Assembly (NCBI GenBank): GCA_041389965.1
Contig: JAWKQV010000015.1
Coordinates: 111,041 to 175,040 of the forward strand
Length of the DNA stretch: 64,000 bases
From: Kofleriaceae bacterium
Lineage (GTDB): Bacteria; Myxococcota_A; Polyangia; Haliangiales; Haliangiaceae
Reading direction: 5' to 3'
Positions 9,601 through 64,000 of the stretch are shown here, one piece after another (position 1 is the first letter of the stretch; each line of letters starts with the position of its first letter). Below the pieces are notes generated by a model that did no database searches, was not told where the DNA came from, and saw only the letters and a list, made by a program, of their open reading frames with translations. A program made the position numbers and the translations under genes.

Positions 9601-9715
9601 CCTACGAGACTTTCCTGTGGACGCCCGGTTGCAGTGAGGTCGCCAGACCCAGGTAGTTGTCCCCACCGGAGACTTTCTGTGCTACTCGATCGAGTGTCCC
9701 CACTGGAGACTTACG
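9601..9715. repeat. Three direct copies of GGAGACTT(T/A)C-containing motif (two 18-nt copies GTCCCCAC(C/T)GGAGACTT(T/A) 37 bp apart) immediately upstream of the hydrolase gene
   Basis: Read directly: ctacGAGACTTTCctgtgg (9605), GTCCCCACCGGAGACTTTc (9658..9677), GTCCCCACTGGAGACTTAc (9695..9714). The last copy supplies the SD (GGAG) for the ATG at 9716. Confidence 0.5.
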
Positions 9716-30835: not shown

Positions 30836-30922
30836 CCGTCGGCCGACCGCACGGTCGTCGCGTCGTCTCGTCGTCTCGGGGGTCACGTTCGTGGCCGGCG
30901 CTGGCCGGCCGAGGAGTCTCGC

Positions 30923-33079: not shown

Positions 33080-33209
33080 CCCGGCGCTCGGCCCGCGCGA
33101 GGCGGGGTGGCCGGTGGCCCCACGGCGCCGGCGCCCCCCTCGGTCGTCCCCGAACTTCCGTGCCCGACGGCGCCTGCGCCATCGGCGCGCTCGTCCCTGC
33201 GAGGTCCCC

Positions 33210-36200: not shown

Positions 36201-38516
36201 GGGCTGCTCGGCTTCGCCGGGCCGGCCCGGGCCCTGGCGGTGGTGGCCTGGGTCGGGCTGGTCGACGACGGCGCCCGCGCCCGCTGGCACCGCGCGGCCC
36301 AGAGCCTGGGCCGGCTGGCCGAGACCCTGGGCGATCGCGGCGCCCAGGCCCAGCTGGCGGTCGAGCTGACCCGGGCCATCGAGCGGCGCCTGGCCGACGA
36401 CCCGGCGCTGGCCGGCGCGGGCCTGGTGGCGGCCGACGCGCCGACCGCCGCGGCCTACCTGGTGCGCGAGCTGGCGGCGCCCCACCCGCGGTGGGTGGTC
36501 AGCGGCGCCGCGGTGGCGCTGCGCGACGCGCTGTACGCCGAGCTCGACGGCCGCGGCGCGCGGGCGACCTTCGACGACGACCTGGCGGCGATGGGGGCCG
36601 GGTCGGGGGCCGCGCTGACCCTGGCGCGGGCGTGGATCGACGGCGTCGTGGCGCGCCGCCCCGAGCTGGCCGCGGCCGCGGTCGAGGCGGCGGCGCTGGT
36701 GGCCACGCCCGGGCTGGCGCGCGAGCCATCGAGCGCGATCGTCGAGGCCGAGGTGGCCGGCTTGTACGGCCGCCACCCGCGCATCGTCGGCGGGGTGTTG
36801 CCGGTGCGGCTCGACGAGCTGGTGGCGCGGCTGGCCCGGTTCCGCGCCGACACCGTGCCGGCGTTCCGCGCCTACCGTGCGGCCCGGGCCGAGGTCGCCG
36901 AGCGTGAGCGGGCCCGGCTGCGGCTGGGCGAGCTGACGCCGCGGGTCATGTCGTCGTTCGTGCGCAACCGCCTCATCGATCAGGTCTACCTGCCGCTGGT
37001 CGGCGCCAACCTGGCCAAGCAGCTGGGCGCGGCCGGGGCGGCGAAGCGCACCGATCAGATGGGCCTGTTGCTATTGGTGTCGCCGCCCGGGTACGGCAAG
37101 ACCACGCTCATGGAGTACGTGGCGGCGCGGCTGGGCCTGGCCTTCGTCAAGGTCAACGGCCCGGCGCTGGGCCACGCCGTGACCTCGCTCGATCCGGCCG
37201 ACGCCGGCAACGCCACCGCCCGCCAGGAGGTCGAGAAGGTGAACCTGGCGCTCGAGCTGGGCACCAACGTGATGCTCTACCTCGACGACATCCAGCACAC
37301 CTCGCCCGAGCTGCTGCAGAAGTTCATCTCGCTGTGCGACGCGCAGCGCAAGATCGAGGGCGTGTGGCGGGGCCGGACCCGCACCTACGATCTGCGCGGC
37401 AAGAAGTTCTGCGTGGTGATGGCCGGCAACCCGTACACCGAAAGCGGCGAGCAGTTCCGCATCCCCGACATGCTGGCCAACCGCGCCGACGTCTACAACC
37501 TGGGCGACGTGCTGGCCGGGCAGGGCGACGCCTTCGCGCTGTCGTTCCTGGAGAACGCGCTGACCGCCAACCCGGTGCTGGCGCCGTTGGCCGGGCGCGA
37601 CCTGGCCGACGTCGGCAAGCTCATCCGCCTGGCCGCCGGCGAGCCGGTGCCGACCACCGAGCTGTCCCACGGCTACGCCGCGGTCGAGCTGGAGGAGCTC
37701 TTGCTGGTCATCCGCCACCTGGTCACCGTCCAGGGCACCCTCCTCAAGGTCAACGCCGCGTACATCCACTCGGCGGCCCAGGCCGACGCGTTCCGCACCG
37801 AGCCGCCGTTCAAGCTGCAGGGCAGCTACCGCAACATGGGCAAGATCGCCGAGCGGGTGGTCGCGGCGATGACCGCCGACGAGCTCGAGCGGCTCATCGA
37901 TGATCACTACCGCGGCGAGGCCCAGACGCTGACCTCCGCGGCCGAGCAGAACCTGCTCAAGCTGGCCGAGCTGCGCGGGCGGCTCGACGCCGCCGGGGCG
38001 GCGCGGTGGGCCGAGATCAAGGCCGAGTACCAGCGCCAGCGGCGCATGGGCGGCGCGGCCGACGATCCGGTGGCGCGCCTGGTCGGCACGTTGGGTGGCC
38101 TGGGCGCCGAGCTGGCCGCGATCCGCGCAGCGCTGGCCGGCGCGGCGTCGACCGCGGAGCTGGGCGGTGAGGTGCGCGCGCTTCGCCAGGCCGTGGTGGC
38201 GGCGGCCCAGCGCGCGACCGCCGACGGGGCGGCCCGGGACCCCGAGGCGTGGTTGGGGCCGCGGCTCGACGCGCTGGCCGCCAGCCTGGCCAGCCCCCGC
38301 GCGGCCGGGCCGGGGCCGCGCACCGACGGGGCCGCGGTCGACGCCGAGCGGCTCTTGGGCCAGATCCGGCGCATCGAGGATTCGCTGGTGCCGGTCATCG
38401 GCGCCGCGGTCGATCAGCGCGCCGGCGATCAGGTGCTGGCGATGAAGATGGTGCAGATCATCGAGCTGCTCGAGCAGCTCGACGCCCGCCTGGCGCTGGG
38501 CGACCGGCGGGGCTGA
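33210..38516 (+). CDS. Very large (1768 aa) protein with C-terminal MoxR-like AAA+ ATPase domain, encoded directly downstream of the NfeD-like/flotillin pair
   Basis: ATG at 33210 is in frame with ORF 33003..38516. Walker A: LLLVSPPGYGKTTLMEY. Walker B: VMLYLDDIQHTSPE. Sensor/MoxR-like: FCVVMAGNPYTESGEQFRIPDMLANRADVYNL. The ~1300-aa N-terminal region matches no family I recognise. Confidence 0.65.
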   Translation: MADVDAALTGGNYQVLRQRLAAAGAELARRAEALNQRRKTLFGATEPQLLATERVRSAHNCAPVDIVAVGDELLLGFNVFLGLKSETQVSDVLARHRFEPTEGGGFDTAPVAAGGPDDFLAGPDLARDFANLYRYYRDARLIQLIKRDTLLLAVFQAGATWRDHKVLRWRIEPDGRVVYVDDRGDRDLAGLYPPAYDFAWREVTRDDQVAGRHPHYNLLDQVFVETVGGDLTIKVEDNTETGRGIYREPVEDANQSLDDARIWYAPIGKPGGLIVIKVLPFRETTWRYLVFDARSRTVVRADGIGQGCRSLPEDHGVVFPGGYVLVGGAHKTFDGDATDYVLKRELRSPNGEDVLYVYHRGRDGTYLLYPYNLIDKAVATPITCHGYSLFADGRMVVLRAGSAEPTRVHPMQVWRTPFTSAEHAASAPTDGSYLAKVGNAELVRGLSDALSIARLAASDRPQRSTFEDLLALATKAGDAYYWLGHPDAGELSGAVADVKAAAKLILDEYDKVLALEAAAAVAVTEAEAAVAERLRATRSEGWDTVEPFLDALTGLRGLRGLLISQRELRFVDVARLAALEAEVVAAFDRVTADCVTLLARGDAFGALVARAADLAAQAGQLTTAAAVAPLRAQIDEVAGGLDLLGSVIGSLAIADTTRRTAILENITDAFAAVNRGRAVVEGRHRELATHEGRAEFGAQVKLLGQTVASALAQCDTPERCDQELARLLVSLEELEGRFAELDELAAELATKREEIVDAVGARKQLLAAERQRRTANLHKAAQRILDGVARRAGALTSADEINAYFASDAMIAKLRDVVAELAALGDAVKADELEARLKAARQDALRGQRDAADLFEDGGGLIRLGDHRFPVNQQPLELMIVPHDDGLAIHLAGTDYYEAVTDPRLVAARALWDQDLPSESATVYRGEYLAAAVLAEAEAGAGGLTVAALHDQVRAGTLEATLRQLAQARYDEGYERGVHDHDAARILEKLLAMRDGAGLLGFAGPARALAVVAWVGLVDDGARARWHRAAQSLGRLAETLGDRGAQAQLAVELTRAIERRLADDPALAGAGLVAADAPTAAAYLVRELAAPHPRWVVSGAAVALRDALYAELDGRGARATFDDDLAAMGAGSGAALTLARAWIDGVVARRPELAAAAVEAAALVATPGLAREPSSAIVEAEVAGLYGRHPRIVGGVLPVRLDELVARLARFRADTVPAFRAYRAARAEVAERERARLRLGELTPRVMSSFVRNRLIDQVYLPLVGANLAKQLGAAGAAKRTDQMGLLLLVSPPGYGKTTLMEYVAARLGLAFVKVNGPALGHAVTSLDPADAGNATARQEVEKVNLALELGTNVMLYLDDIQHTSPELLQKFISLCDAQRKIEGVWRGRTRTYDLRGKKFCVVMAGNPYTESGEQFRIPDMLANRADVYNLGDVLAGQGDAFALSFLENALTANPVLAPLAGRDLADVGKLIRLAAGEPVPTTELSHGYAAVELEELLLVIRHLVTVQGTLLKVNAAYIHSAAQADAFRTEPPFKLQGSYRNMGKIAERVVAAMTADELERLIDDHYRGEAQTLTSAAEQNLLKLAELRGRLDAAGAARWAEIKAEYQRQRRMGGAADDPVARLVGTLGGLGAELAAIRAALAGAASTAELGGEVRALRQAVVAAAQRATADGAARDPEAWLGPRLDALAASLASPRAAGPGPRTDGAAVDAERLLGQIRRIEDSLVPVIGAAVDQRAGDQVLAMKMVQIIELLEQLDARLALGDRRG

Positions 38517-50335: not shown

Positions 50336-50339
<4 letters not shown>

Positions 50340-51436
50340 CGGGCACCTCCGGCCTGCTCGACCTGCAGCCGCGACGGCCGGCTGTCGTTGGCCCACGGCT
50401 GGATGTCGATGGTCACGCCCTTGAGGCGCTCGCCCAGGCGCTCCATCACCCGCTCGACCGGCTGGACCCGGAACGCGTCGATCTCGGCCTTCTTCGAAGT
50501 GTACTGGGCCTGGAGCTGGCCGGTCAGCTCGATCGCCCGCTGGCGCGCCGCCGACAGCGCCGCCTCGCCGCCGGCGACCTTCTCGATCTTGTCGGTGTCG
50601 ACCTGGCGGTGGGTCTCGGTCTGGGCCGCCACCGCGGTGGCCAGCTGGCCCTCCATCGCCGCGCGCTTCTCCTGCATGACCTTGTTCTGGTCGCGGTCGA
50701 CCTCGGCCAGCCGGCGGCTGCGCTCGGTCTCGGCCCGCTCGAGGTTGGAGTCGATGACCGACAGCTCGTTCTCGGTCTGGTTGCGGGCCTCGATCAGCTC
50801 CTCGTACTCGTTGGAGAACCGCGGCCGCGGCGTGACGATGCTGGTGACCTCGAGCCCGTGCTGGTTGAGCAGCTCGTTGATGCGGCGGCGGGCCCGCTCG
50901 GTGGCCTGGCCGAAGGTGGTCGGGTTGGACACGCTGATGGTCGACTCCTTGCCGAACTCGTCGCGCAGGATCGAGCGGGCGTACGGCAGCATCCACATCC
51001 GGTAGCGCTCCCCCTCGCCGGCGTCGGTGATGACCCGGGCCGCCGCGCCGGGGATGACCCGGAACAAGATGGTCGTGTCGTTGAACACGAAGTTGGACCC
51101 GTCCGACGCGCGGACCGTCAGCTCGTCGACGGTGAGCGGGTCGACGTACTTGTCGCCCCGCATGTGGAAGGTCTGCGGCGCGGCCTCCAGGGTGTAGACC
51201 GTGTGGATGCCGAACGGCAGGCGCACGATCAGGCCGGGCTGGGTGATGGTCTCGACCGCGCCGGTCAGGTTGTTGACGCGGACCGCGACGTGGCCCGGCT
51301 CGATGGTGACGCACGACCGGGTGGCGATGATCAGCGTCACCACCGCGGCCGCGACCAACCACAGGCGCGTGCGGTCTCCGCGCATCGAAGCCAGCGCGGC
51401 CTCGGCGCGCCCGCGGACGGTTCTCGAACTCGACAT
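50336..51436 (-). CDS. SPFH/band-7 family protein (HflK/HflC-like, first of pair)
   Basis: [38 protein letters not shown] (TM) then SPFH: [52 protein letters not shown]. Confidence 0.7.
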
Positions 51437-51546
51437 GGCGTAGCCTTTCCCGGCCAACGCGGCCGGCCCCTGGCCCCAGTGTACGTCAGCCGGGGCCGGG
51501 CTGTCGGCTTGCGCGGGCGCGCCGGCTCGGGCACCCTGCCGCCCCG

Positions 51547-52737
51547 GTGTTCGCGCGCTTGTCGTCGGTCCGACGCAGCCTGCCCGACGCGTTCTGGTTG
51601 GTGTGGCTCGGCACGCTGGTCAACCGCGCCGGCGGCTTCGTCATGCCGTTGCTCGGGTACTACCTGACCGACGCGCGCGGGCTGACCCGCGGCACCGCGG
51701 TCGCGGTGGCGACCTGCTACGGCGTCGGGCTGCTGGCCTCGGGGCTGGTCGGCGGGGTGCTGGCCGATCGCCTGGGCCGGCGCCGCACCATGCTGGCGTC
51801 GCTGTTCGGCGGCGCGGCGATGCTGGTGGCGCTGTCGGAGGCGCGCGGGGTGTACCCCATCGGCGCCGCGGCGCTGGCGCTGGGGTTCCTGGGCGAGCTG
51901 TACCGGCCGGCGGTGATGGCGTACGTCACCGACGTGGTGCCGGCGCCGGATCGCGCCCGCGCGTTCGCGTACCAGTACTGGGCCATCAACCTCGGCTTCA
52001 CCATCGCCCCGGTGGTCGGCGGCGCGCTGGCCGACTGGTCCTACCGGGCGGTGTTCTTGGGCGACGCGGCGACCATGGCGGCCTACGGCGTGCTGGTCGC
52101 GGCGCGGGTGCCGGAGTCGCGCCCGGCGCCGGCGGCGCTCGACGCCGGGCCGCCGTCGACGCTGCGCACGGTGCTGACCGACCGGGTGTTCCTGACCTTC
52201 GTCGGGCTGTGCCTGGTGGTGGGCCTGATGTTCTTCCAGACCACGATGACGCTGTCGCTCCACCTCGAGCACCTGGGCCTGTCGGCGTCGACCTACGGGC
52301 TGGTGATCGGGGTCAACGGCGGGCTGATCGTGCTGGCGCAGCCGTGGCTGGCGGCGCGGGTGACCTCGCTCGACGGCACCCGGGTGCTGGCGGTGTCGGC
52401 GGTGCTGGCCGGGCTCGGCCTGGCCCTGCACGGGCTGCCCGGCGGCGTCGCCATCCACGTCGGCGCGGTGGCGGTGTGGACCGTCGGCGAGATCATCCAG
52501 TCGCCGTTCTTCTCGTCGACGGTGGCCGCGCTGGCCCCGGCCGACGCCCGCGGCCGGTACCAGGGCGTGTTCGGCATGTCGTTCGGCGCCGCCGCCATGC
52601 TGGCGCCGCTGGCCGGCCAGGCGTTGGTGGCGGCGTTCGGCCCGCGCGGCCCGTGGCTGGTGTGCGGCGGCCTGGGGCTGGTGGTGGCGGCCGGCTTCAT
52701 CGTCACCGGGCCGGCCCGCCGGGCCCGCGGCGCCTGA
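51547..52737 (+). CDS. MFS transporter
   Basis: 12-TM pattern, with MFS motif [14 protein letters not shown] between TM2 and TM3. Confidence 0.8.
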
Positions 52738-52750
52738 GCCGCCACCAAAG

Positions 52751-54067
52751 TTGCGCCCGGGCGGGCTTCCCGCCGATGCTGCGTCGATGCCGGCCCTGGT
52801 CCGCCGCGGACTCGAGACGTTGATCCGCCCCGCGCCGTCCGCCGCGGTCACCACCGTCGCCGCCGAGGACGAGCCGGCCGCGGCCGGCGTCGACCGGGCC
52901 AGCGTCGACGCGATCTGGCGCGCCGCCGAGGCGGCCTACCAGACCGGGCTGTACCCGGCGCTGGCGCTGTGCGTGCGCCGACGCGGCCGGGTCGTCCTCG
53001 ATCGTGCCATCGGCCACCTGCGCGGCAACAGCCCCACCGACGGTGCCGACGTGCGCAAGGTGCCGGCTCGGCCCGACAGCCTGTACTGCATGTTCTCGGC
53101 TTCGAAGATGGTGACCGCGATGCTGGTCCACCTGCTCGACGAGCGGCACCTGATCCACCTCGACGATCCCGTCGCCCACTACCTGCCGGCGTTCGGCACC
53201 AAGGGCAAGCACCGCATCACCATCCGCCACGTGCTCACCCACCGGGCCGGCGTGCCGCGCATCCCGGCCGAGCTGGCCGACCCCAACCTGCTGGGCCGGC
53301 CCGACGAGATCCTGAGCCTCTTGTGCGCGCAGGCCCCGGTGTGGCGGCCGGGGCGGCGGCTCGGCTACCACGCGCTGACCGGCGGGTACCTGCTGGCGGC
53401 GGTGATCGAGCAGGTGGTCGGCAAGGACGTGCAGGCGTTCCTCCACGACGAGATCGCCGCCCCGCTGGGGCTGGCGCATTTTCGCTACGGCGCCAGCCCG
53501 GCCCGCATGAAGGACGTGGCCGAGAACGCCTTCACCGGGCCGCCGGTGGTGCCGCCGCTGGCCACGGTGATCAAGCGCGCGCTGTCGGTCGACTTCACCG
53601 ACGCGGTGCGCATCTCCAACGACCCGCGCTTCCTCGGCGCGGTCATCCCCGCGGGTAACATCTGCACCAGCGCCGGCGACGCCGCGCGCTTCATGGAGCT
53701 GCTCCTCGACGGCGGTGTCGCCGGTGGCCAGCGCATCTTCTCGCCCCGCACCATCGCCCACGCCATCGCCGAGCAGAGCTACCTGGAGCTCGACCTGACG
53801 GTGGGCGCGCCGGTCCGCTACGGCGCGGGCTTCTTGCTGGGCGCCAAGCTCACCAGCCCGTTCGGGCTGGGCACGCCCAAGGCGTTCGGTCACCTCGGCT
53901 TCACCAACGTGTTCGTGTGGGCCGACCCCGAGCGCGATCTGGCCGCGGCGCTGATGACCACGGGCAAGCCGGCGCTGTCGCCGGGGCTAGCCCGGCTGTG
54001 GTGGCTCCTGACGACGATCGCCCGGCGGATCCCCAGCGACGGTCGCCGGCACATCGCCGGGGCGTGA
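52751..54067 (+). CDS. Serine hydrolase, beta-lactamase/transpeptidase-like (class C/esterase family)
   Basis: SxxK motif: MFSASKMV. Y motif: HALTGGY. HxG motif: GHLGFTN. The start might be the internal Met (MPALVRRG). Confidence 0.7.
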   Translation: MRPGGLPADAASMPALVRRGLETLIRPAPSAAVTTVAAEDEPAAAGVDRASVDAIWRAAEAAYQTGLYPALALCVRRRGRVVLDRAIGHLRGNSPTDGADVRKVPARPDSLYCMFSASKMVTAMLVHLLDERHLIHLDDPVAHYLPAFGTKGKHRITIRHVLTHRAGVPRIPAELADPNLLGRPDEILSLLCAQAPVWRPGRRLGYHALTGGYLLAAVIEQVVGKDVQAFLHDEIAAPLGLAHFRYGASPARMKDVAENAFTGPPVVPPLATVIKRALSVDFTDAVRISNDPRFLGAVIPAGNICTSAGDAARFMELLLDGGVAGGQRIFSPRTIAHAIAEQSYLELDLTVGAPVRYGAGFLLGAKLTSPFGLGTPKAFGHLGFTNVFVWADPERDLAAALMTTGKPALSPGLARLWWLLTTIARRIPSDGRRHIAGA

Positions 54068-54136
54068 CGCGCGCATCGCCGGGGCGTGACGCGCGCCGCG
54101 GTTGACGCGGTGCGGGGGATGACGCATAGTCGGAGC

Positions 54137-54526
54137 ATGCGCCGGCCACGTCTGCTCCTGCCGCTGATCGCGGCGACGGCGTTGCTGGCGCTGCTGGTCG
54201 GTCAGCGCGGCTGGGCCCAGGCGGCGTGCATCGACGCCGGGATGGTGCGGACCGCGGACGGGTGTCGGTGCTGTCGCACCGCGGCGGCCCACCAGCCGCC
54301 GGCCGAGGCGCAGCTCACCGGGCGTTGCTGCTCGCTGGACGAGTCGGCACCCCTGGTGTCGGCACCGGCGGCCACCCAGGGCACGGCGCCGGCGGTGGTG
54401 ACGGTCGACCCGGTCGCGATCCGTGTCGCGGTGGCCCGGCCCCGGGCGCTGGTCGCCGCGGCGCCGCCCCGGCCGGTCGAGACCGGTCCGCCGATCTGGC
54501 TGGCGACGCTCGTGCTGCGCTTGTGA
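54137..54526 (+). CDS. Small secreted Cys-rich hypothetical protein
   Basis: Internal Met: MRRPRLLLPLIAATALLALLVGQRGWAQA signal, then CIDAGMVRTADGCRCCRT...CC. Confidence 0.4.
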   Translation: MRRPRLLLPLIAATALLALLVGQRGWAQAACIDAGMVRTADGCRCCRTAAAHQPPAEAQLTGRCCSLDESAPLVSAPAATQGTAPAVVTVDPVAIRVAVARPRALVAAAPPRPVETGPPIWLATLVLRL

Positions 54527-54628
54527 TCCAGCGTCGGTGACGTCCCGCCTCGCCGTCGGGTGAGGCTCGTGTGGTCGCGACCTGGTCGCGGCCGCGTCGC
54601 TGCGTCGATCGATCGCTGGAGTTACCTG

Positions 54629-55174
54629 ATGCGCAACCGCTGCTTGGTCTCTGTCTTGTCCGTGTCCCTGTCGCTGGCCGTCGCCTGCGGCGGCTCGTCC
54701 TCGCCCACTCCGACCACCCCCGCGGCCGCGGCCGCCGCCGATCCGGGCGGGCCCCTGTGCCCGATGACGGTCCCCGGTACCTCGGTCGCCGAGGTCGACG
54801 CCGATACCGGCGGCGCCTTGGTGTTCACCACCACGGGTGATCCGTCGGTGCTGCGCGCCCGCGTGGCCGGCTGGGCCGAGCGCCACAACGCTCGGCACGG
54901 GGCCATGGGCCTGCTGCCTACCGGCGACGAGGCCGCGCCGGCGATGGAGGGCCACCACCACCACCACCATGGCGGCGCCGGCGACGCGCCCGCCGCCAGC
55001 ACCGCCGCCGACCCCGCCGAGCTGGTGCAGACCCACTCGAGCGCGACCGCGGTCGACGTCGACGGCGGCGCCCGGCTCGAGTTCAAGACCTTCCCCGACC
55101 AGGTCGGCGCGCTCCAGGGCGAGCTGCGCGGCCACGCCGCGCACCTGGCCACCGTCGGCTGTGGTGGGCGCTAG
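54629..55174 (+). CDS. Lipoprotein with His6 tract (putative metal-binding), first gene of metal/copper cluster
   Basis: MRNRCLVSVLSVSLSLAVACGG lipobox; MEGHHHHHHGG. Confidence 0.5.
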   Translation: MRNRCLVSVLSVSLSLAVACGGSSSPTPTTPAAAAAADPGGPLCPMTVPGTSVAEVDADTGGALVFTTTGDPSVLRARVAGWAERHNARHGAMGLLPTGDEAAPAMEGHHHHHHGGAGDAPAASTAADPAELVQTHSSATAVDVDGGARLEFKTFPDQVGALQGELRGHAAHLATVGCGGR

Positions 55175-55184
55175 CGTGCGCGCC

Positions 55185-55349
55185 ATGATCATCACGGCGG
55201 GTCTGGTCGTCGCCGCCCTGGTGGCCGCCTGCCGCGCCCCGGTCCCGACCCGCGGACCGCAGCATCCGGCGCGCGCCGACGCGCCCGCCGGCAGGCTGGC
55301 AGGCGCCCCGGCGATCCTGGTCGGCGTGCCGCCGGTGGAGGCGCCGTGA
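55185..55349 (+). CDS. Small (54 aa) putative lipoprotein
   Basis: MIITAGLVVAALVAACRAP... Its stop overlaps the tolC-like start. It lies within a longer spurious ORF, so the call is weak. Confidence 0.3.
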   Translation: MIITAGLVVAALVAACRAPVPTRGPQHPARADAPAGRLAGAPAILVGVPPVEAP

Positions 55350-56710
55350 TGCGCCGGCTGGTCCTGGTGGGAACGCTGGCCACCGCCGCGTGCGTGCCGG
55401 CCACGGCCACCGTCGAGGCGCCGGTGCGGCGGCTGGTCGACCAGCGGGCCGGCCTCGAGCTCGACGCCGACGCGACCGCGCTGCTCGACGCGCCGCTGAC
55501 CCAGGCCTCGGCCGCCCGCCTGGCGGCGGTCCATCACCCGCGCGCCGCGGCGGCGCTGGCCGAGCTGGGCCTGGCCGCCGGCGAGCTGGGCCTGCGGCGC
55601 GGCCTGGGCCACACCGACCTCGATGTCGAGGCGCGGCTGATCGGCCGCGAGCCGTCCTTCGACGTGGCGGTGGTGCAGGATCTGATGGAGCTACTCACCG
55701 TGGCGCCGCGCCGCGCCGCTGGCGACGCGATGGTGGCGGCGGCCCAGGCCCGGGCCAGCGCCACGCTCCTCGAGCTGGCGGCCCGCGCCGAGCTGGCGTG
55801 GCTCGACGTCGCGGCCGCCACCGAACAGCTGGCCCTGGCCCGCGACGCCTTCGATACCCTGGCCGCCAGCGCCGATCTGACCGAGCGCATCCGCGCCGCC
55901 GGCGGCACCACCGCGCTGGCCCAGGCCCGGGCCCAGACCGCGCGTGAGCTGGCGCGCCTCGACGTGGCCCAGGCTGAGACCGCGCTCGAGCTGGCGCGCA
56001 CCAGCCTCGACGGCGCGCTCGGCCTTTCGGGCGCGGCCACCCAGTGGCAGCTGGGCGCGGCGCTGCCGGCCGACGCCGGCCCGGCCCCGTCGGTCGACGA
56101 TCTCGAGACCGCGGCGGTGGCGGCGAGCCTCGAGCTGGCCGCGCTCGACGCCGATCAGCGCGCGCTGCGCAACGACGCCCGGGCCGCCTCGGTGGCGCGG
56201 TGGCTGCCCGGCCTGGGCGTCGGTGTCGCCGCCGAGCACAGCGAGGCCGGGTGGACCGCGGGGCCGGCGCTGCGGATCGGGCTGCCGCTGGTGACCGGCG
56301 GCGGCGGCGCGGTGGTCCGGGCTCGGGCCGCGGTGAGTGTGAGCGAGCACCGCCTGACCGCGACCGCGGTCGAGCTGCGGGCCGCGGCCCGGGCCGCGCG
56401 GGTCGAGCTGCTCGGCGCGCGGGCGGCGGTGATCCACCTGGCCACCGTGGTGGTGCCGCTGGCCCGCCAGGTGGTGGCCGACAGCGTGCTGCAGTACAAC
56501 GCGATGAACGTCAGCCCGTTCGAGCTGCTGACCGCCCGCCGCGATCAAGCGATGGCCGAGCAGGCGCTGGTGGCAGCGCGGCTGCGGTTGGCCAGGGCCG
56601 AGGTCGTGGTGCGCGCGCTGCGCCACGGCGTCGTCGTGGCAAGCCCCTCGTCCTCGTCATCGGCCGCGACCTCGTCGCGCGCCGCGTCCGCCCACGGCGG
56701 GCACCCGTGA
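55346..56710 (+). CDS. TolC-family outer-membrane efflux protein (CusC/CzcC-like)
   Basis: Signal/lipobox MMRRLVLVGTLATAAC, then two Ala-rich coiled-coil/beta-barrel repeats typical of OEP. Confidence 0.7.
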   Translation: MMRRLVLVGTLATAACVPATATVEAPVRRLVDQRAGLELDADATALLDAPLTQASAARLAAVHHPRAAAALAELGLAAGELGLRRGLGHTDLDVEARLIGREPSFDVAVVQDLMELLTVAPRRAAGDAMVAAAQARASATLLELAARAELAWLDVAAATEQLALARDAFDTLAASADLTERIRAAGGTTALAQARAQTARELARLDVAQAETALELARTSLDGALGLSGAATQWQLGAALPADAGPAPSVDDLETAAVAASLELAALDADQRALRNDARAASVARWLPGLGVGVAAEHSEAGWTAGPALRIGLPLVTGGGGAVVRARAAVSVSEHRLTATAVELRAAARAARVELLGARAAVIHLATVVVPLARQVVADSVLQYNAMNVSPFELLTARRDQAMAEQALVAARLRLARAEVVVRALRHGVVVASPSSSSSAATSSRAASAHGGHP

Positions 56711-56720
56711 AGGAGTCCTC

Positions 56721-58058
56721 ATGCGTCGCCGCGATCTGATCTCGACCTCCCTGGCCGCCGGCGTCGCGACCGCGTTCGCGCGGCGCGCCGTGGCTCAGCC
56801 GCACAACCACACGATGCCGATGCCGCCGACGCCCGCGCCGGCGCCGCCCGCGGTCACCGCGCCGGCCACCGCGCGCGCCTCGACCGCCGCGGCCGCGACC
56901 TCGCGCCTGGTGGTCCCCAACGGCCGCGTCCTGCCCGGGCGCGTCGTCGGTGGCGTGCGGGTCTACCACCTGACCGCCGAGCCCATCCGTCACGAGGTCG
57001 CCCCCGGCCTGGTGATCGACACCTGGGGCTATAGCGGCGGCACGCCGGGGCCGGTGCTCGAGGCCACCGAGGGCGAGGAGGTCCGCATCTACGTCACCAA
57101 CAAGCTGCCCGAGCCGACCACCGTCCACTGGCACGGCGTGATCTTGCCGAGCGGCATGGACGGCGTGGCCGGCCTGACCCAGGCCCCGATCCCGCCCGGC
57201 GCGACCTGGCGCTACCAGTTCACGTTCAAGCACGCGGGCACGTTCATGTACCACCCGCACATCGACGAGATGACCCAGATCGCGCTGGGCATGGTCGGCA
57301 TGATCGTGGTGCACCCGAAGGCGCCGCCGCGCGCGACCCGACCGGTGCGCGACTACGTGCTGATGGCCCACGAGTGGAAGATCGTCCCCGGTGCGCGTCG
57401 ACCGGACCCGCTGGCCATGAACGACTTCAACCAGCTGGTGTTCAACGGCAAGGGCTTCCCGGCCACGGCGCCGCTGGTGGCCGAGGTCGGCGACCTGGTG
57501 CGCATTCGGCTGGGCAACCTGGGGCCGATGGACACTCACCCGATCCACCTCCACGGCTACGCCTTCAAGGTGGTCGAGACCGACGGCGGGCCGATCCCGC
57601 CGTCGGCGCGGTGGCCCGAGACCACGGTGCTGGTGCCGGTGGGCGGCGTGCGGGTGATCGAGTTCATCGCCGACGCGCCGGGCGACTGGCCGCTGCACTG
57701 CCACATGACCCACCACGTCATGAACCAGATGGGCCACGACGTGCCCAACCTGATCGGCGCCGACGTGCGCGGCGTCGACGCCCGCATCGGCCGGCTGACC
57801 CCGGGCTACATGACCATGGGCCACACCGGCATGGCCGACATGGCGAGCATGGGCATGCCGCTGCCCGACAACTCGATCTCGATGGTAGGCGGCCCCGGTC
57901 CGTTCGGCCCGATCGACATGGGCGGCATGTTCACGATCGTGAAGGTGCGCGACAAGCTCGCCGGCGACGGCGACCCGGGCTGGTACCAGCAGCCGGCGGG
58001 CACCGCGGTGCAGGCGGCGACCGCGGCCGAGCTGGCCGCCGACGGCATCGAGGTCTGA
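56721..58058 (+). CDS. Multicopper oxidase (CopA/CueO-like), Tat-secreted
   Basis: Tat signal MRRRDLISTSLAAGVATAFARRAVAQ. T2/T3 Cu motifs HWHGVILPSGMDGVAG and HCHMTHHVMNQMGH. T1 motif HLHGYAF. Confidence 0.85.
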   Translation: MRRRDLISTSLAAGVATAFARRAVAQPHNHTMPMPPTPAPAPPAVTAPATARASTAAAATSRLVVPNGRVLPGRVVGGVRVYHLTAEPIRHEVAPGLVIDTWGYSGGTPGPVLEATEGEEVRIYVTNKLPEPTTVHWHGVILPSGMDGVAGLTQAPIPPGATWRYQFTFKHAGTFMYHPHIDEMTQIALGMVGMIVVHPKAPPRATRPVRDYVLMAHEWKIVPGARRPDPLAMNDFNQLVFNGKGFPATAPLVAEVGDLVRIRLGNLGPMDTHPIHLHGYAFKVVETDGGPIPPSARWPETTVLVPVGGVRVIEFIADAPGDWPLHCHMTHHVMNQMGHDVPNLIGADVRGVDARIGRLTPGYMTMGHTGMADMASMGMPLPDNSISMVGGPGPFGPIDMGGMFTIVKVRDKLAGDGDPGWYQQPAGTAVQAATAAELAADGIEV

Positions 58059-58103
58059 CCCGCGCGCGGGCCGCTCAGCGCGCGCCGGCCGGGCCGGGGC
58101 GGC

Positions 58104-58904
58104 TCACGGGCCGCCCAGGTAGTCGACCTTGGCCTCGACGTGGAAGTGGTCGTAGTGGCTCTTGGGATCGTTGCGCGGGGTCAGCACGGTGCGGAAGCCG
58201 CCCGAGTCGTTGAGGTAGTCCTCGACCCGGAGTAGCAGCGGATCGTCCTTGAGGTAGTCGTCCTGCACCACCGCCTTGTGGCCGGTGTCGTCGACGATCG
58301 CGCGGATGTCGATGGCCAGGCCCAGCGCGTGGCGCGACAGCGCGCGCTTGGTCGTTCCGCCGGTGCGGACCTGCGTGTAGCCGTAGATGCGCGAGAAGTA
58401 GAGCTCGCGGACGCCGCGCGCATACAGCTCGCGGCCGTGGAGCGTGAGCGCCACCGCCAGCTCGCAGTCCATGATGAACGGCGGCCGGCGGAAGGTCGGG
58501 ATGACCTTGAGGCCGCCGAACTCCATCGCCGCCACGGTGATCGGCGTGGCGATCTTGCGCTGCTTGGGCGCCGGCTTCCAGGACACCCCGAGCTGGTCGA
58601 GCTGCGTGGTGCAGGCGACGCCCTGCTTGCGCATCGCCGGCGTCGGCGGCCAGGCCCACCCCGACGGCATGTTGGCAGGGCGGGCCGACGGCCGGGCCGC
58701 GCGCGAGGCGCGCTTGCCCTTGCGCTTGCGGGTGCCCTTGCGATTGCGCTTGCGCTTGCCCTTCGGCTTGCGCGTGGCCTTGGTCGACGGCTTGGCCTGG
58801 GTCGTGGCGTGGGGCGGGCCGGCTTGGGGCGGGGCAGCCGCCGCCACGTCGGGCGCGCACAGGGCGAGCGCGCCGACCAGGACCGCGAGCAGACGACAGG
58901 ACAC
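58104..58904 (-). CDS. Secreted protein with Lys/Arg-rich linker and extensin-like C-terminal domain (tentative family)
   Basis: Signal MSCRLLAVLVGALALCAP, then a KPKGKRKRNRKGTRKRKGKR stretch. The C-terminus ...FSRIYGYTQVR...SRHALGLAIDIR resembles bacterial Extensin-like_C proteins. Confidence 0.5.
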   Translation of the reverse strand: MSCRLLAVLVGALALCAPDVAAAAPPQAGPPHATTQAKPSTKATRKPKGKRKRNRKGTRKRKGKRASRAARPSARPANMPSGWAWPPTPAMRKQGVACTTQLDQLGVSWKPAPKQRKIATPITVAAMEFGGLKVIPTFRRPPFIMDCELAVALTLHGRELYARGVRELYFSRIYGYTQVRTGGTTKRALSRHALGLAIDIRAIVDDTGHKAVVQDDYLKDDPLLLRVEDYLNDSGGFRTVLTPRNDPKSHYDHFHVEAKVDYLGGP

Positions 58905-58946
58905 CGCCGGACGGTACTACGCCTGCGCCGGGGAGCCACCCGCTTC

Positions 58947-58966
58947 GCCCCCGGTGTACACCGGGG
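58947..58966. promoter_or_regulatory. Perfect 20-bp palindrome CCCCCGGTGTACACCGGGGG in divergent intergenic region
   Basis: Read directly. It lies between the extensin-like gene (-, start 58904) and the giant ORF (+, 59014). Confidence 0.5.
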
Positions 58967-59013
58967 GCTCACGGCGGCGGCGCGCGCCCCGGCCGCGCGG
59001 TACCTTCGGCGCC

Positions 59014-62000
59014 ATGGAGATCGAGCAGCTCGAAGGCCTGGCGTTGTCGACGGATCGAGGCCCGGCGCTGGCGCGCCTGGTGGCGGGCAGCGAAGACCAC
59101 GACTACTGGACCGCCATCGATCACCAGCACCACGGGCGCCTCGACGCGGTCGATGCGCTGTTGCGCGGCTGGGCCAACCGCCACGGCGACACCGCGCGGC
59201 GCCAGCGGCTGGTGCGGCGCCAGCGCCTGCTGCGCGCGTCGGTGGACCTGTCGGCCCACGCCGCCGCCCTGGCCGACGAGCTCGACGTCAACTTCGACCA
59301 CCAGCCCGAGACCGTCGACGCCGCGGCCGCCTATCCGACCGCGCTCGATCCCGCGCTGCTCGAGCCGCGCCGGGTCATCGCCCAGGCGGTGGCCCGCGGC
59401 GACGGGCTGGCCCTGGTCACCCCGGCCGGCCTGGCCACCCTCGATCCGGCCGCGCTCGACAGCCACCAGCGGCGCCAGCTGCTGGAGCGGCTCGAGCACG
59501 TCGACGGGCCCGGCCTGGTGGCCGCGGTCGCCGCCGAGCTGACCGAGCGCGGCACCCGCGGCTTCGGCGCGCTAGCCATCCACGGCCGGCTCACGCTGGC
59601 CCAGCTCGAAGCGCTGGTGGCGCGGGTGCCGGCGCTGCGCCAGGACCCGGCGTGGGTGGGGGCGGTGTTGACCCGCCGCCAGCCGCCGTTCGACGTCGAG
59701 TGGACCGACGACCTGGATGCCCGGGTCGGCTACCTCGACGCCACCCAGGCCTTCGTCGACGGTCTGCCGACCGTGTTCGCGCCGCTGCAAGCGCTGGTGC
59801 GCTACCACCGGCTGGCCGCCATGCTGCGCCGGGGCCGGGTCGACGGCGCCGAGCTGCGGACCTACCTGGCGTCGCCACGCCCGAGCGGCGGGGCCAGCGC
59901 CAGCGCCGCGGTGGTCGAGCGGTGGCGGGGCGCCAGCCTGATCTCCGTCGACGGCGCGCTGGCGCGGGCGGTGGCGCTGGCCCCGATCGGCGACGACGAG
60001 CCGCTGGTGCGCGCGTGCGTGCACGCGCTCCTCGCCGACGGCCCGGGCGACGAGCTGGCCGAGGTGGTCGACGCCGCGTGGCTGACCCGGCAGCGGGCCG
60101 AGGTGCGGCTGCTCGCCGGCGACGTCGACCCGCGCTGGGCCAGCCACCTGGGGCCGGTCGCCACCGCCGCCTTGCGCGAGCGGGTCGATCTGTCGTTCGC
60201 GCCGACCAACCCGCCGGTGTGGCCGCGCGATCAGCCGGTGGTGCTCGAGGTCGACGTCAAGCACGTGCCGTCGCTGCGGGTCCGGGTGTTCCGCATCGAC
60301 GAGGCCGCCTGGATCCTGGCCCGCGGCCAGGAGGTGGATCCGGCCATCGACCTCGACGGTCTGGCTGCCGGCTGGGAGGAGGTGCGCGAGCTGACCGCCG
60401 CGCCCATGGTGCGGCAACGGCTGCGGCTGGCCCTCGACGCGTGCGCGCGCGCGGGCACCTACGTGGTCGAGCTGATCGGCGGCGGCCAGGCCAGCCGGGC
60501 CTTGATCCGCCGCGGGCGGCTGGCGTGCATCAGCCGGACGACCGCCGCGGGGGCCGCGGTGCGGGTGGTCGACGAGCGCGGGCGCGCGTGCCCGACCGCG
60601 CGGCTGATCCGGGCCGGCCACGAGTTCTCGGCCGACGAGCGCGGCGAGATCCACGTGCCGTTCTCGACCGAGCCGCGGCCGACGCCGGTGGTGCTGTGCG
60701 ACGGCGACGTGGCGTCGCCAGCGTGGCTCGACCGCGCCGACGAGCGCTACCAGCTCACCACCCGGTGGCAGCTCGATCGCCAGAGCCTGCGCGAAGGGCA
60801 GGTGGCCCAGGCGGTGGTGCGGCTCGACCTCCGGGTCGGCGACCGCCCGGCGTCACTCGACCTCCTCGAGGAGCCGTACCTGGAGCTGGTCACCACCGAT
60901 CGGCGCGGCGTCACCGCCCAGCGGCGCACGCCGGTGACCGTGGCCGACGGCCTCGACCTCGAGGTCGAGCTGGCGGTGCCGGCCCACCTGCGGTCGGTGG
61001 TGGCCGCCATCGGCGGTCGGGTCCGCTCGCTGTCGCAGCAGCAGCCCATCGAGCTGCGCAGCGAGCGCAGCTTCGAGGTCGCCACCATCCGCGATCACGA
61101 CGTGACCGCCGCGTTCCACCTGCGCGGCGACGGGCGTCGGCGCTGGCTGGCGCTGCTCGGCACGTCGGGCGAGCCGCGGGCCGGCCGGGCGGTGACCCTC
61201 GAGGTCTCGACCGCGCTGACCACCGTGCCGGTCGAGGCCACGGTGGCGACCGACGCCGCCGGCCAGGTGGACCTGGGCGAGCTGGCCGGCGTCACCGCGG
61301 TGATCGCCACCGCCGGTGACGTCACCGCGCGGTTCGAGCTGGTCCCCGAGGTCGCCGTCACGCGGCGCCACCAGACGGTCACCGTCGGCGACGAGGTGGT
61401 GATCCCGGTCGCGGTCGATCACCAGGGCGGCGCGCTGCCACCGACTCGCTGGTCGGTGGTGGAGCTGCGCGGCGACGCGCCATGCCGGAGCTGGGCCGGC
61501 CAGGTGATCGCCGAGCCCGGGCGGCTGCGGGTGCGCGACCTGCCGGTCGGCGTGTACGAGGTGCGGGCCGCCGGCGCGGTCACCGGCCTGTGGGTGGCCC
61601 CGGCCAGCGCCGCGCCGGGCCTGGCGGTGTCCTCGCGTCGCCTCGCCGCGGTGCGGGCCGGCCCGCCGACCACGGCCCAGGTCGAGGTCGACGCCGACGA
61701 CGCGGTGGTGGTGCGGGTCGACGCCGCCACCGCCGCGACCCGGGTCCACGTGGTGGTGACCGCGCTGTGGCCGACCCCGGCCCTCGACGATGATCTCGCG
61801 GGCCCCCCGACGCCCGCACCCGAGGCTCAGCTCACGCCGGCTCCCACGGTCTACCTGTCGGGCCGCGACATCGGCGACGAGTACCGCTACGTGCTCGACC
61901 GCCAGCGTCAGCCGCGGCGCCCGGGCGTCCTCCTCGACAAGCCGGCGCTGCTGCTCAACCCGTGGGCGCTGCGCACCACGCAGACGTCGACGCAGACCGC

Positions 62001-64000
62001 GCGTGGCGGCGGCGGCTACGGCGCCGCGGGCGCGCCGGCGGCGTTCGCCAGCGCGCTGGGTGGCTCGGCGGGGTACCGCGGCGACAAGGAGCGGGCCGCC
62101 GGCGCGCTGCTGCCGGGTCACGACTTCCTGGTCGACGAGGTCCGGGTCTTCGCCAACCTGGCGCTCGACGCCGATGGCGAGATCCGGCTGACGGCGGCCG
62201 AGCTGGGCGGCGGCGCCCACGTCGTGGTCCACGTGGTCGATCCCAGCGCCACCTCGCGCCACCTGATCGTGCGCGCGGCCGCGACCCCGACGGTGCGCGA
62301 CCTGCGCCTGGCCGCGGCGCTGCCGGTCGAGCTGCACCTGCGCGAGGATCGCCGGCTGGTGGCCGCGCCGGCGGGCACGCCCATCGTCGTGGCCGATCGC
62401 ACCACCGCGCGGGTCGAGCTGCTCGACACCGTCGACAAGCTGTACCGCGCGCTGTGCGCGCTGTCGGGGGACGCCACGCTCGCCGGCTGGGACTTCCTGC
62501 CGCGGTGGGCCAGCCTGCCCGAGGCCGAGCGCCTGCGGCTCTACACCCGCCACGCCTGCCACGAGCTGGCCCTGTTCATCTACGGCAAGGACCGCCCGCT
62601 GTTCGACCGCGCGCTGGCGCCGTACCTGCGCAGCAAGCTGCACCCGACGTTCATCGATCGCTGGCTCCTGGGCGACGATCTGACTGAGTTCCTCGAGCCG
62701 TGGCGCCTCGATCGCCTGAACGCCCTCGAGCTGGCGCTGCTGGCGCGCCGGCATCGCGAGGTCGGCCCGGCGCTGCACCGGCGCCTGGCCGACGCGGTGG
62801 CCCTGACCGAGCCCGATCCCGGCGCCGACGATCGCCTGGTCGACACCATCATCGCCGGCGGCGCGCTGGCCGGCGACGCGCTGGCCATGCCGCAGGCGGA
62901 GGCCGCGCCGGTGGAGCTGGCCGACGAGGCGCTGGCCGAGCCGACGCGCAGCGCGAGCTTCGGCGCGATGGCGCCGCGCCCGGCGCCGGCCCCGGCGCCC
63001 AAGGCCAAGAAGCGGGCCAACCGCCCGGCCGACGAGACCGACGACGAAGGCGGCGACCTGCGGCGCGAGGCCCGGCGCGAGCGCGCCGCCGCGGTGCCGC
63101 TGTACCGCGCCGTCGATCGCACCGAGGAGCTGGCCGAGCACAACTGGTGGCACCGGCGGGTCGGCGACGTCGGCCCCGACCTCATCGGCGCGGCCCGGCT
63201 GTGGCGCGACCTCGCGGCCCACACCGAAGGCCGGTTCCTCAGCCCGCACGTGGTCGACGCCGCCACCAGCCTGCCGGCGGCCATGGCGGCCCTGGCGTTG
63301 CTCGACCTGCCGTTCACTACCACGGCGCCGACGGTGGTCGCCACCGAGGCCGGCGCCACCGTCACGCCCGCGCGCGACGCGGTCGCCGCGGTGATCGAGC
63401 TGGCGCCGGTGCCGGGGCCCGCGCTCGGCTCGCTCCAGGTCAGCCAGCACTACCTCCGCCACGACGATCGCCTGCGCTGGGACGGCAGCGATCAGGTCGA
63501 AAACTACGTGACCGGCGAGCTGGTGACCGGCGCGGTGTACGCCTGCCAGCTGGTCCTGACCAACCCGACCAGCCGGACGCTGCGGGTGTCGGTGCTGCAC
63601 CAGATCCCGGCCGGCGCCATCGCGGTCGGCGGCTCCATCGCCACCGCCACCACCCGGTGCCAGCTGGCCGCCCACCACACCACCACCATCGAGTACCGCT
63701 TCTACCTGCCGCACCCGGGCGTGTTCACCCACTACGGCGCGCAGATCACCGGCATCGTCGACGGCGCGCCCGCGCTGCTAGCGGCGGTGCCGGCCCGCGC
63801 GCTGACCGCGGTGGCCACGCCGACCGAGATCGATCCCGACTCCTGGCCGCACCTGGTGGCCCACGGCTCGTTGGCCCAGGTGTGCGCGTACCTGGCCGAC
63901 AAGCCGCTCGGCCGGGTCGCGCTGGCTGACCTGGCGTGGCGCTGTCGCGATCGCGCCGCGTTCGAGGCGATCACCGACACGCTCGCCGCGCGCTGCCAGG
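59014..64000 (+). CDS. Very large hypothetical protein (>=1662 aa in window; no stop before window end) - absent from supplied ORF track
   Basis: Translated manually from ATG 59014 (MEIEQLEGLALSTDRGPALARLVAGSEDHDYW...). Frame continuity was checked codon by codon at 59521, 60001, 61021, 62041, 63001 and 63961, all in phase with no stops. Third positions are strongly G/C. No signal peptide or family recognised. Confidence 0.6.
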   Translation, partial: MEIEQLEGLALSTDRGPALARLVAGSEDHDYWTAIDHQHHGRLDAVDALLRGWANRHGDTARRQRLVRRQRLLRASVDLSAHAAALADELDVNFDHQPETVDAAAAYPTALDPALLEPRRVIAQAVARGDGLALVTPAGLATLDPAALDSHQRRQLLERLEHVDGPGLVAAVAAELTERGTRGFGALAIHGRLTLAQLEALVARVPALRQDPAWVGAVLTRRQPPFDVEWTDDLDARVGYLDATQAFVDGLPTVFAPLQALVRYHRLAAMLRRGRVDGAELRTYLASPRPSGGASASAAVVERWRGASLISVDGALARAVALAPIGDDEPLVRACVHALLADGPGDELAEVVDAAWLTRQRAEVRLLAGDVDPRWASHLGPVATAALRERVDLSFAPTNPPVWPRDQPVVLEVDVKHVPSLRVRVFRIDEAAWILARGQEVDPAIDLDGLAAGWEEVRELTAAPMVRQRLRLALDACARAGTYVVELIGGGQASRALIRRGRLACISRTTAAGAAVRVVDERGRACPTARLIRAGHEFSADERGEIHVPFSTEPRPTPVVLCDGDVASPAWLDRADERYQLTTRWQLDRQSLREGQVAQAVVRLDLRVGDRPASLDLLEEPYLELVTTDRRGVTAQRRTPVTVADGLDLEVELAVPAHLRSVVAAIGGRVRSLSQQQPIELRSERSFEVATIRDHDVTAAFHLRGDGRRRWLALLGTSGEPRAGRAVTLEVSTALTTVPVEATVATDAAGQVDLGELAGVTAVIATAGDVTARFELVPEVAVTRRHQTVTVGDEVVIPVAVDHQGGALPPTRWSVVELRGDAPCRSWAGQVIAEPGRLRVRDLPVGVYEVRAAGAVTGLWVAPASAAPGLAVSSRRLAAVRAGPPTTAQVEVDADDAVVVRVDAATAATRVHVVVTALWPTPALDDDLAGPPTPAPEAQLTPAPTVYLSGRDIGDEYRYVLDRQRQPRRPGVLLDKPALLLNPWALRTTQTSTQTARGGGGYGAAGAPAAFASALGGSAGYRGDKERAAGALLPGHDFLVDEVRVFANLALDADGEIRLTAAELGGGAHVVVHVVDPSATSRHLIVRAAATPTVRDLRLAAALPVELHLREDRRLVAAPAGTPIVVADRTTARVELLDTVDKLYRALCALSGDATLAGWDFLPRWASLPEAERLRLYTRHACHELALFIYGKDRPLFDRALAPYLRSKLHPTFIDRWLLGDDLTEFLEPWRLDRLNALELALLARRHREVGPALHRRLADAVALTEPDPGADDRLVDTIIAGGALAGDALAMPQAEAAPVELADEALAEPTRSASFGAMAPRPAPAPAPKAKKRANRPADETDDEGGDLRREARRERAAAVPLYRAVDRTEELAEHNWWHRRVGDVGPDLIGAARLWRDLAAHTEGRFLSPHVVDAATSLPAAMAALALLDLPFTTTAPTVVATEAGATVTPARDAVAAVIELAPVPGPALGSLQVSQHYLRHDDRLRWDGSDQVENYVTGELVTGAVYACQLVLTNPTSRTLRVSVLHQIPAGAIAVGGSIATATTRCQLAAHHTTTIEYRFYLPHPGVFTHYGAQITGIVDGAPALLAAVPARALTAVATPTEIDPDSWPHLVAHGSLAQVCAYLADKPLGRVALADLAWRCRDRAAFEAITDTLAARCQ

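Follow-up and report, generated by a model that had tools for sequence, protein, structure and literature searches.

A giant gene at the end of a 64-kb Kofleriaceae sequence belongs to a widespread, uncharacterised protein family with predicted macroglobulin-type and TPR-like domains

The stretch of DNA analysed here, called the window, comprises 64,000 nucleotides of a Kofleriaceae bacterium (assembly GCA_041389965.1, contig JAWKQV010000015.1, positions 111,041 to 175,040 of the forward strand). At its 3' end lies an open reading frame (ORF) that begins with ATG 59014 on the plus strand and is larger than any other gene nearby. Read from 59014 to 63999 (+), it runs through 1,662 sense codons without a stop; the remaining five frames contain 3-28 stops across the same interval. 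An earlier reading made from the letters and a list of ORFs (the sequence-only reading) had described this frame as a giant ORF of more than 1,660 codons which the ORF list had missed for want of a stop inside the window. Both statements are confirmed; the frame is absent only because the list is confined to ORFs that end inside the window. Open frames cut by a contig end can thus hide the largest gene of a region, which is a lesson for annotation.

In a sliding frame plot (600 nt, phase of 59014), the GC contents at the three codon positions (GC1/GC2/GC3) stay at ~0.81/0.54/0.96 from about 59000 onwards until the window closes; over the giant ORF as a whole they are 0.80/0.53/0.96. The comparison gene at 32991-38516 has the same pattern (0.77/0.50/0.97). 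Long spurious ORFs are common at 75 % GC, which is the value of this genome (70-79 % in the window), and two ORFs of ~1,000 codons overlap the giant frame. Both facts could speak for a chance open frame in GC-rich DNA, a pseudogene or a fusion of shorter genes. However, the two overlapping ORFs look like Arg-rich shadows with non-coding patterns: 58278-61319 (+) contains 27 % Arg at a GC3 of 0.56 and 60853-63732 (-) contains 16 % Arg at a GC3 of 0.79. Furthermore, the giant frame has hundreds of full-length colinear homologues with identities down to 30 %, its start codon is conserved among them, and the alignment shows neither gaps nor frame breaks. This alternative, to which we give next to no weight, is disproved as far as the window reaches; a pseudogene could arise only through a disruption in the 3' 1.2 kb beyond it. 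Thus, 59014-64000 is a single real gene with an intact 5' 80 %, of which we are practically certain. The sequence-only reading had anticipated the high third-position GC and the Arg-rich nature of the competing ORFs. It had also named a better coding signal in another frame, or homologues indicating a frameshift or several shorter genes, as findings that would speak against the gene. Since the coding signal is strongest in the 59014 frame across 59000-64000 and the homologues are colinear over 100 % of the fragment, neither was found.

The giant frame is already open from 58402, and in the frame plot 58000-58900 shows the codon-position signature of a minus-strand gene. ATG 59014 aligns exactly with the N-termini of the homologues (MDIEQLEALALSDDR; M-D/E-I-E-Q-L-E-A-L-A-L...), several of which have in-frame stops 4-9 codons 5' of the Met. 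Judged from this alignment, ATG 59014 is the true start. Alternative upstream starts that would add a signal peptide were considered and rejected, because the frame 5' of ATG 59014 runs into the divergent gene and codes for no hydrophobic segment, in addition to the stops in the homologues.

The 1,662-residue fragment retrieves 194 proteins with up to 59 % identity; more than 190 of them, 2,030-2,110 residues long, align with the entire fragment. Among the 120 homologues listed, query coverage is 94-100 % and identity 34-59 %, and nearly all are 2,000-2,110 residues long. All of these are named "hypothetical protein" with no Pfam domain on record, and most come from Myxococcota, namely Nannocystis exedens, N. 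punicea and Kofleriaceae and Myxococcales metagenome-assembled genomes (MAGs). Conservation extends over the whole alignment except for two linkers at window residues ~992-1036 and ~1286-1364. The window protein belongs to this family of ~2,060 residues with 100 % coverage at 30-59 % identity, and it contains all family motifs that fall inside the window (the conserved N-terminal motif, SGRDIGDEYRY, ACHEL and QEWAE.NWWH). Because the homologues are ~2,060 residues long and cover the fragment fully, ~400 C-terminal residues must lie beyond base 64000, and the window holds the N-terminal 80 %. The very large size claimed in the sequence-only reading is therefore borne out, while its open-ended length is not: the complete protein has ~2,060 residues.

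In species-representative genomes of GTDB we found at least 462 loci, distributed over Myxococcota, Planctomycetota (Gemmataceae, Pirellulaceae, Kuenenia, Phycisphaerae), Verrucomicrobiota/Kiritimatiellia/Opitutia, Lentisphaerota, Riflebacteria/Ozemobacter and Hydrogenedentota. A hidden Markov model profile of window residues 1030-1290, searched against 1.84 billion representative proteins (50 % identity clusters), matched 1,929 proteins at E <= 1e-3 and 951 at E <= 1e-30. This domain has the same position in every full-length match, and the matches listed, which leave out the weak tail, all belong to the same family or its fragments, with no domain-hopping. A Gemmataceae member used as query retrieved 1,874 relatives. 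The family keeps every domain over 2,000 residues in at least six phyla and ~1,900 clusters at 50 % identity.

Despite this size, the family has no Pfam or NCBIfam model, solved structure or studied member, and literature searches found no described family for the giant protein. Besides "hypothetical" only two names are in use. UniRef automatically labels three cultured Gemmataceae members "Alpha-2-macroglobulin (A2M) domain-containing protein", a label that Pfam and NCBIfam scans did not reproduce; named members are SAMN02745121_04789 of Nannocystis exedens and the "A2M domain-containing proteins" of Limnoglobus roseus and Fimbriiglobus ruber. The label "transcription antitermination NusB family protein" (NCBI/JGI; P0388, P0440, P0446) is spurious and goes back to a sub-threshold match of TIGR01951 (E = 0.12) to the small helical domain at residues 1209-1266. 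The single 9.38-Mb chromosome of Limnoglobus roseus encodes two full-length paralogues, P0388 and P0389 (73 % and 71 % identical to the Gemmataceae query), so the family is not always single-copy.

The predicted architecture is given in Table 1. It derives from two AlphaFold2 (AF2) models built from family alignments, one of window residues 1-1010 and one of residues 1035-2058 of the closest homologue, with residues mapped by alignment. The N-terminal model has a predicted local distance difference test (pLDDT) score of 87.6 and a predicted TM-score (pTM) of 0.80; the latter, for a multidomain model of 1,010 residues, suggests a fixed inter-domain packing and not a flexible string. The C-terminal model (pLDDT 80.6, pTM 0.63) predicts, in this order, a β-sandwich, a helical domain of ~145 residues, a disordered linker of ~80 residues, short helices, a β-sandwich pair, a helical domain of ~260 residues and a further β-sandwich pair. 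Most of the last tetratricopeptide repeat (TPR)-like domain and the final β-sandwich pair are encoded beyond the window. In the highly conserved segment at residues 946-991 the second half is predicted to be disordered (pLDDT <50 from residue 972; the N-terminal half was modelled alone).

Table 1. Features of the giant gene and its 5' flank; domain folds are predictions
Feature	Position	Strand	Basis or remark
Coding sequence, 5'-complete, 3'-truncated by the window; aa 1-1662 of ~2,060 aa	59014..64000	+
N-terminal all-helical TPR-like domain, aa 1-390	59014..60183	+	AF2 model
~Six β-sandwich (macroglobulin/Ig-like) domains, aa 392-952	60187..61869	+	AF2 model
Highly conserved segment SGRDIGDEYRYV...PG.LLDKP.LLLNPWA.RTT, aa 946-991	61849..61986	+	Invariant or near-invariant across phyla
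Variable Gly/Ala-rich linker 1, aa 992-1036	61987..62121	+	Conservation down to 0.32, occupancy 0.75; 11-79 aa across the family
β-sandwich domain, aa ~1037-1137	62122..62424	+	AF2 model m4665c6f61247 of the orthologous P0002 segment, strands idx 42-110
Small helical (TPR-like) domain, aa 1140-1285	62431..62868	+	Helices idx 113-258, pLDDT >90
Hypervariable, charged, Pro/Ala-rich disordered linker 2, aa 1286-1364	62869..63105	+	pLDDT <50; 70-167 aa across the family, no sequence conservation
Conserved segment R..DKTQEWAE.NWWH and short helices, aa 1365-1429	63106..63300	+	Conservation; helices idx 362-396
Tandem β-sandwich pair, aa 1440-1599	63331..63810	+	AF2 model
First ~50 residues of the last TPR-like helical domain (~260 aa), cut by the window end	63844..63999	+
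C-terminal family motifs FYKDGYTD..., HLEYAPL.NARAH.LG, ELLFSRQPF, FYKDGYTDLRGRFDYATLST			Expected beyond the window
Extensin-like_C (Peptidase_M15-like) gene	58104..58916	-	Pfam PF06904, E = 2e-12; divergent neighbour, not a conserved partner
Divergent intergenic region, 97 bp	58917..59013	.	Between the Extensin-like_C gene (-) and the giant gene (+); gene limits

The repeated Ala/Val/Arg-rich segments reported in the sequence-only reading proved to be a matter of GC-driven composition and not of repeats. The protein consists of 17 % Ala, 12 % Leu, 10 % Arg and 10 % Val, as does every gene product of this GC-rich window, and self-BLAST found no internal repeats. Comparison of profiles between the β-sandwich domains reached at best 57 % probability over 28 columns, and thus revealed no significant sequence repeats. 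The repetition that does exist is structural and lies in the ~11 predicted β-sandwich domains.

Neither a transmembrane helix nor a signal peptide was found in the window fragment, in agreement with the sequence-only reading: hydropathy over 19 residues peaks at 1.49, and the N-terminal end is acidic. Elsewhere in the family this is different. In Planctomycetota, Verrucomicrobiota, Lentisphaerota, Riflebacteria, Hydrogenedentota and one Desulfobacteraceae MAG, a hydrophobic leader of 20-35 residues stands immediately ahead of the conserved N-terminal motif (leader|motif, for example MKLFVITIVAVWAVFLVSQMAGAE|KIGFVEDFSLARDR), whereas Myxococcota members including the window protein begin at the motif itself. 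By locus, L015-L083 (outside Myxococcota) bear the leader, and the window, L001 and L006-L019 are leaderless. A neighbour-joining tree separates the leaderless proteins, which branch as basal Myxococcota lineages, from those with a leader. A few proteins inside the leader-bearing clade were also called "no leader", but these are cut by a contig end or have borderline hydropathy scores. On the N-terminal sequences, then, the leader pattern is clear. Because the leaders are of the Sec type, the family appears to be exported in most phyla. For the Myxococcota clade we infer from the missing leader that the protein is presumably cytoplasmic, which we hold to be somewhat more likely than not; otherwise it would have to be exported by another route. 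Cysteines and disulfides gave no clear pattern as a marker of the compartment. With one clade exported and the other leaderless, the family is a natural test of the compartments in which such a scaffold can function. One leaderless protein comes from a MAG labelled "uncultured Enterobacteriaceae bacterium" (L008, CAZZLC010000008.1); it falls inside the Myxococcota clade with 44 % identity to the window protein, and the label of this MAG is probably wrong.

The best structural matches in the PDB are folds of the macroglobulin (MG) type by two methods, with a stronger signal in the C-terminal half, and C4 and C3 are among the structures listed. In Foldseek the top match is the C3b α' chain (E = 2.6e-7), and behind it come C5, C4b, human A2M and the E. 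coli protein ECAM, the latter with a TMt of 0.56. The TM-scores against complement/A2M-type matches are only ~0.1, and the domain arrangement is not superposable. An array of MG β-sandwich domains, a feature of the A2M/thioester-protein superfamily, is nevertheless present in the models, and the β-sandwiches are very probably of the MG type, with bacterial A2Ms and the complement/TEP proteins as their closest relatives in structure. The automatic UniRef label of the Gemmataceae members points the same way independently. By sequence profile the protein does not belong to this superfamily: none of the A2M/MG Pfam families such as PF00207, PF01835, PF07703, PF17973 and PF11974 was found in it, and genuine relatives of YfhM carry 11 of them. 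Pfam scans of eight relatives and NCBIfam scans of four gave only sub-threshold matches, including CarboxypepD_reg, SpaA, FixH and a few unrelated families. No meaningful match to PDB sequences was obtained with phmmer or with a 54-sequence profile. A CxEQ thioester motif was seen in 3 of 200 family members, where its positions are not homologous, and the window protein has none; the fold comparison of the C-terminal half gave no recognisable match to a thioester domain (the α/α-toroid inserted in CUB). The giant protein is therefore described here as built from A2M-type parts and is not filed as an A2M.

Among the known systems, the type II bacterial A2Ms (MagD of P. aeruginosa, YfaS of E. 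coli) are the best functional analogy for an MG scaffold that has no thioester but a disordered, variable internal linker: these MG-domain proteins likewise lack the thioester and still entrap non-covalently once the bait is cleaved (PMC5764988). Type II A2Ms typically keep A2M sequence signatures, of which the giant family has none, and MagD lacks the TPR modules. MagD-like proteins are also encoded in a six-gene mag-type operon with the membrane partner MagB, whereas the giant gene has no conserved neighbour. Type I A2Ms (ECAM/YfhM of E. coli, SaA2M of Salmonella) differ in more respects. They carry the CxEQ thioester, have A2M families recognised by Pfam, lack TPR-like modules, of which the giant family has three, and are periplasmic lipoproteins encoded next to pbpC, as yfhM is in E. 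coli. In contrast, the window protein is leaderless, and no gene for a penicillin-binding protein is conserved nearby. Leaders of relatives in the Planctomycetota-Verrucomicrobiota group mostly have no Cys in the lipobox position, as judged by eye. Compared with eukaryotic thioester proteins (C3/C4/C5, TEP1, CD109, human A2M), the giant protein has no thioester, CUB, anaphylatoxin or C345C domain, is bacterial and leaderless in Myxococcota, and superposes poorly, as the TM-scores above indicate. TPR scaffolds of the envelope (LpoA N-domain, LapB, BcsC, PilF) are small, have no MG arrays and show no sequence similarity to it; the sole sequence match of TPR type was Pfam ANAPC3 (E = 0.09) in one relative. 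We would therefore describe the giant protein not as a known enzyme or system but as a stand-alone variant of the macroglobulin-type architecture that carries TPR modules and no thioester.

Taken as a whole, a real gene for a protein of ~2,060 residues from an uncharacterised family, forming an MG/TPR scaffold that is leaderless here, is the explanation we favour by a slight degree. Regarding function, we infer with considerable reservation, by analogy, a non-enzymatic scaffold that would bind or cage its ligands non-covalently. In such a scaffold the MG array would serve as a stiff frame and the TPR grooves as docking sites for peptides, one of which could be the protein's own conserved segment at residues 946-991. 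Of the two hypervariable, disordered linkers (residues 992-1036 and 1286-1364), the second, linker 2, might act as a flexible or cleavable hinge or bait. The mechanism could be modelled on the thioester-less type II bacterial macroglobulins, among which MagD traps proteases non-covalently after bait cleavage (PMC5764988).

A number of results weigh against this interpretation. GH2 β-galactosidases score almost as well as the complement proteins in Foldseek, so part of the structural signal is generic to proteins with multiple β-sandwiches. A link to A2M at the sequence level did not emerge: neither Pfam nor NCBIfam, nor a PADLOC scan, matched the window protein at E <= 1, and hhalign against E. 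coli YfhM gave a probability of 0.2-0.3 % with a shallow A2M profile, a weak negative because the YfhM homologues retrieved were only enterobacterial proteins of 83-98 % identity. The AF2 models represent the halves apart and do not tell a ring or cage from an extended form. The surroundings of 82 loci revealed no linkage of the giant gene to a protease, substrate or partner gene, and we know of no MG-type trap without an export signal. Finally, the invariant polar residues described next could form a catalytic or metal-binding site and not a groove.

These residues, H1183, E1184 (nt 62560-62565), D1193, K1208, D1215, N1236 and E1239, lie in the small helical domain and are invariant in 80 sequences from several phyla. 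Our own reading is that they may line a ligand-binding groove of the TPR-like module, possibly for the 946-991 peptide of the same protein. The sequence-only reading had seen no obvious catalytic motif, which stands, with this cluster as a qualification. Seven polar residues within ~60 positions that stay invariant across phyla at ~30 % overall identity, in a domain that is specific to the family and among its best-conserved regions, could also mark the active site of an enzyme, in which case the MG and TPR domains would bind the substrate or act as spacers. However, no enzyme family in Pfam, NCBIfam or the PDB matches, and the motif reads H-E-L-x and not HExxH. A zincin reading of the "CHELH" found in relatives was rejected for its wrong spacing and because the second His is not conserved, the window protein having HELA. 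We regard an enzyme as improbable.

Closer to the favoured scaffold is a third type of protease-trapping α2-macroglobulin, in which linker 2 would serve as bait and its cleavage would collapse the MG frame without a thioester, as in MagD. The MG-type matches by two methods, a hypervariable, disordered and protease-accessible linker between conserved domains, the export of relatives in other phyla, the UniRef label on Gemmataceae members and the precedent of MagD all speak for it. It is opposed by the missing A2M signatures (true bacterial A2Ms have 11 Pfam families), by the lack of a mag-like or pbpC neighbour and of a signal peptide in the window protein, and by the length of linker 2, which is two to three times that of typical bait regions. 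We therefore consider this reading unlikely. An extended structural or adhesive protein of the envelope, either a beads-on-a-string Ig array as in invasin and intimin or a component of an S-layer, is in our view very improbable. The pTM of the N-terminal half argues for fixed packing, no anchor, sorting signal or transmembrane segment occurs in the window fragment, and the Myxococcota lineage is leaderless. In addition, adhesins vary in repeat number, whereas here the length and every domain are strongly conserved and sequence repeats are lacking.

We may speculate further, at long odds, that the family represents a third class of bacterial macroglobulin-like machines with an MG frame and TPR modules but neither thioester nor operon partner, and that its Myxococcota branch exchanged the periplasm for the cytoplasm. 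In that case it would be the first macroglobulin-type cage to work inside the cell, trapping for example proteases or effectors. If the A2M-like reading is true, macroglobulin architecture also comes in a form with TPR modules and no thioester. This form is then common among the Planctomycetota, Verrucomicrobiota and Myxococcota, which are known for their complex envelopes and for living by predation or competition. No concept is overturned by these findings; the size, the absent annotation and the split into exported and leaderless forms make the family a reasonable target for structural and cell-biological work.

The giant gene looks like a stand-alone unit, since no family of flanking ORFs is common to more than 13 of the 82 loci, and those 13 reflect synteny of close relatives. 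Synteny of this kind includes a SulP transporter downstream in Kofleriaceae-like genomes. Neighbours that recur across phyla (DUF1501, histidine kinases and response regulators) are generically abundant. The divergent Extensin-like_C neighbour is present in L001, the locus of the closest homologue, but not in Nannocystis and not across the 82 loci; the spacing of ~100 bp is likewise found at L001. A search for a sigma-70 consensus promoter or a terminator in the intergenic region, which did not cover other promoter types, found none. The Extensin-like_C neighbour itself has a strikingly Lys/Arg-rich low-complexity stretch (KPKGKRKRNRKGTRKRKGKR) that follows its N-terminal hydrophobic leader.

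Upstream, synteny with the locus of the closest homologue extends, in this order, over Band_7, MFS, OEP-like, multicopper oxidase, Extensin-like_C (-) and giant gene; no synteny was found with the Nannocystis exedens locus. In the window, 50336-58058 contains Band_7, MFS_1, two ORFs with no Pfam match, OEP-like and multicopper oxidase genes, syntenic with the contigs of L001 and L002 (59 %-identical homologue), which suggests that the window stems from a relative of those Myxococcota MAGs. A second giant gene pair occupies 30836-38516. Its first gene (30836-33079, +) encodes an SPFH/Band_7 protein of 747 residues and slightly overlaps the second (32991-38516, +), which encodes 1,841 residues with DUF3686 ("ATPase involved in DNA repair", E = 1e-182), DUF7902 and a C-terminal AAA+ domain. 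PADLOC gave no match for either protein, nor for the 782-residue product of 9638-11986 (+), which carries eCIS_core, peptidoglycan-binding and Peptidase_M15_3 domains and looks, from these domains, like a cell-wall-targeting effector or toxin.

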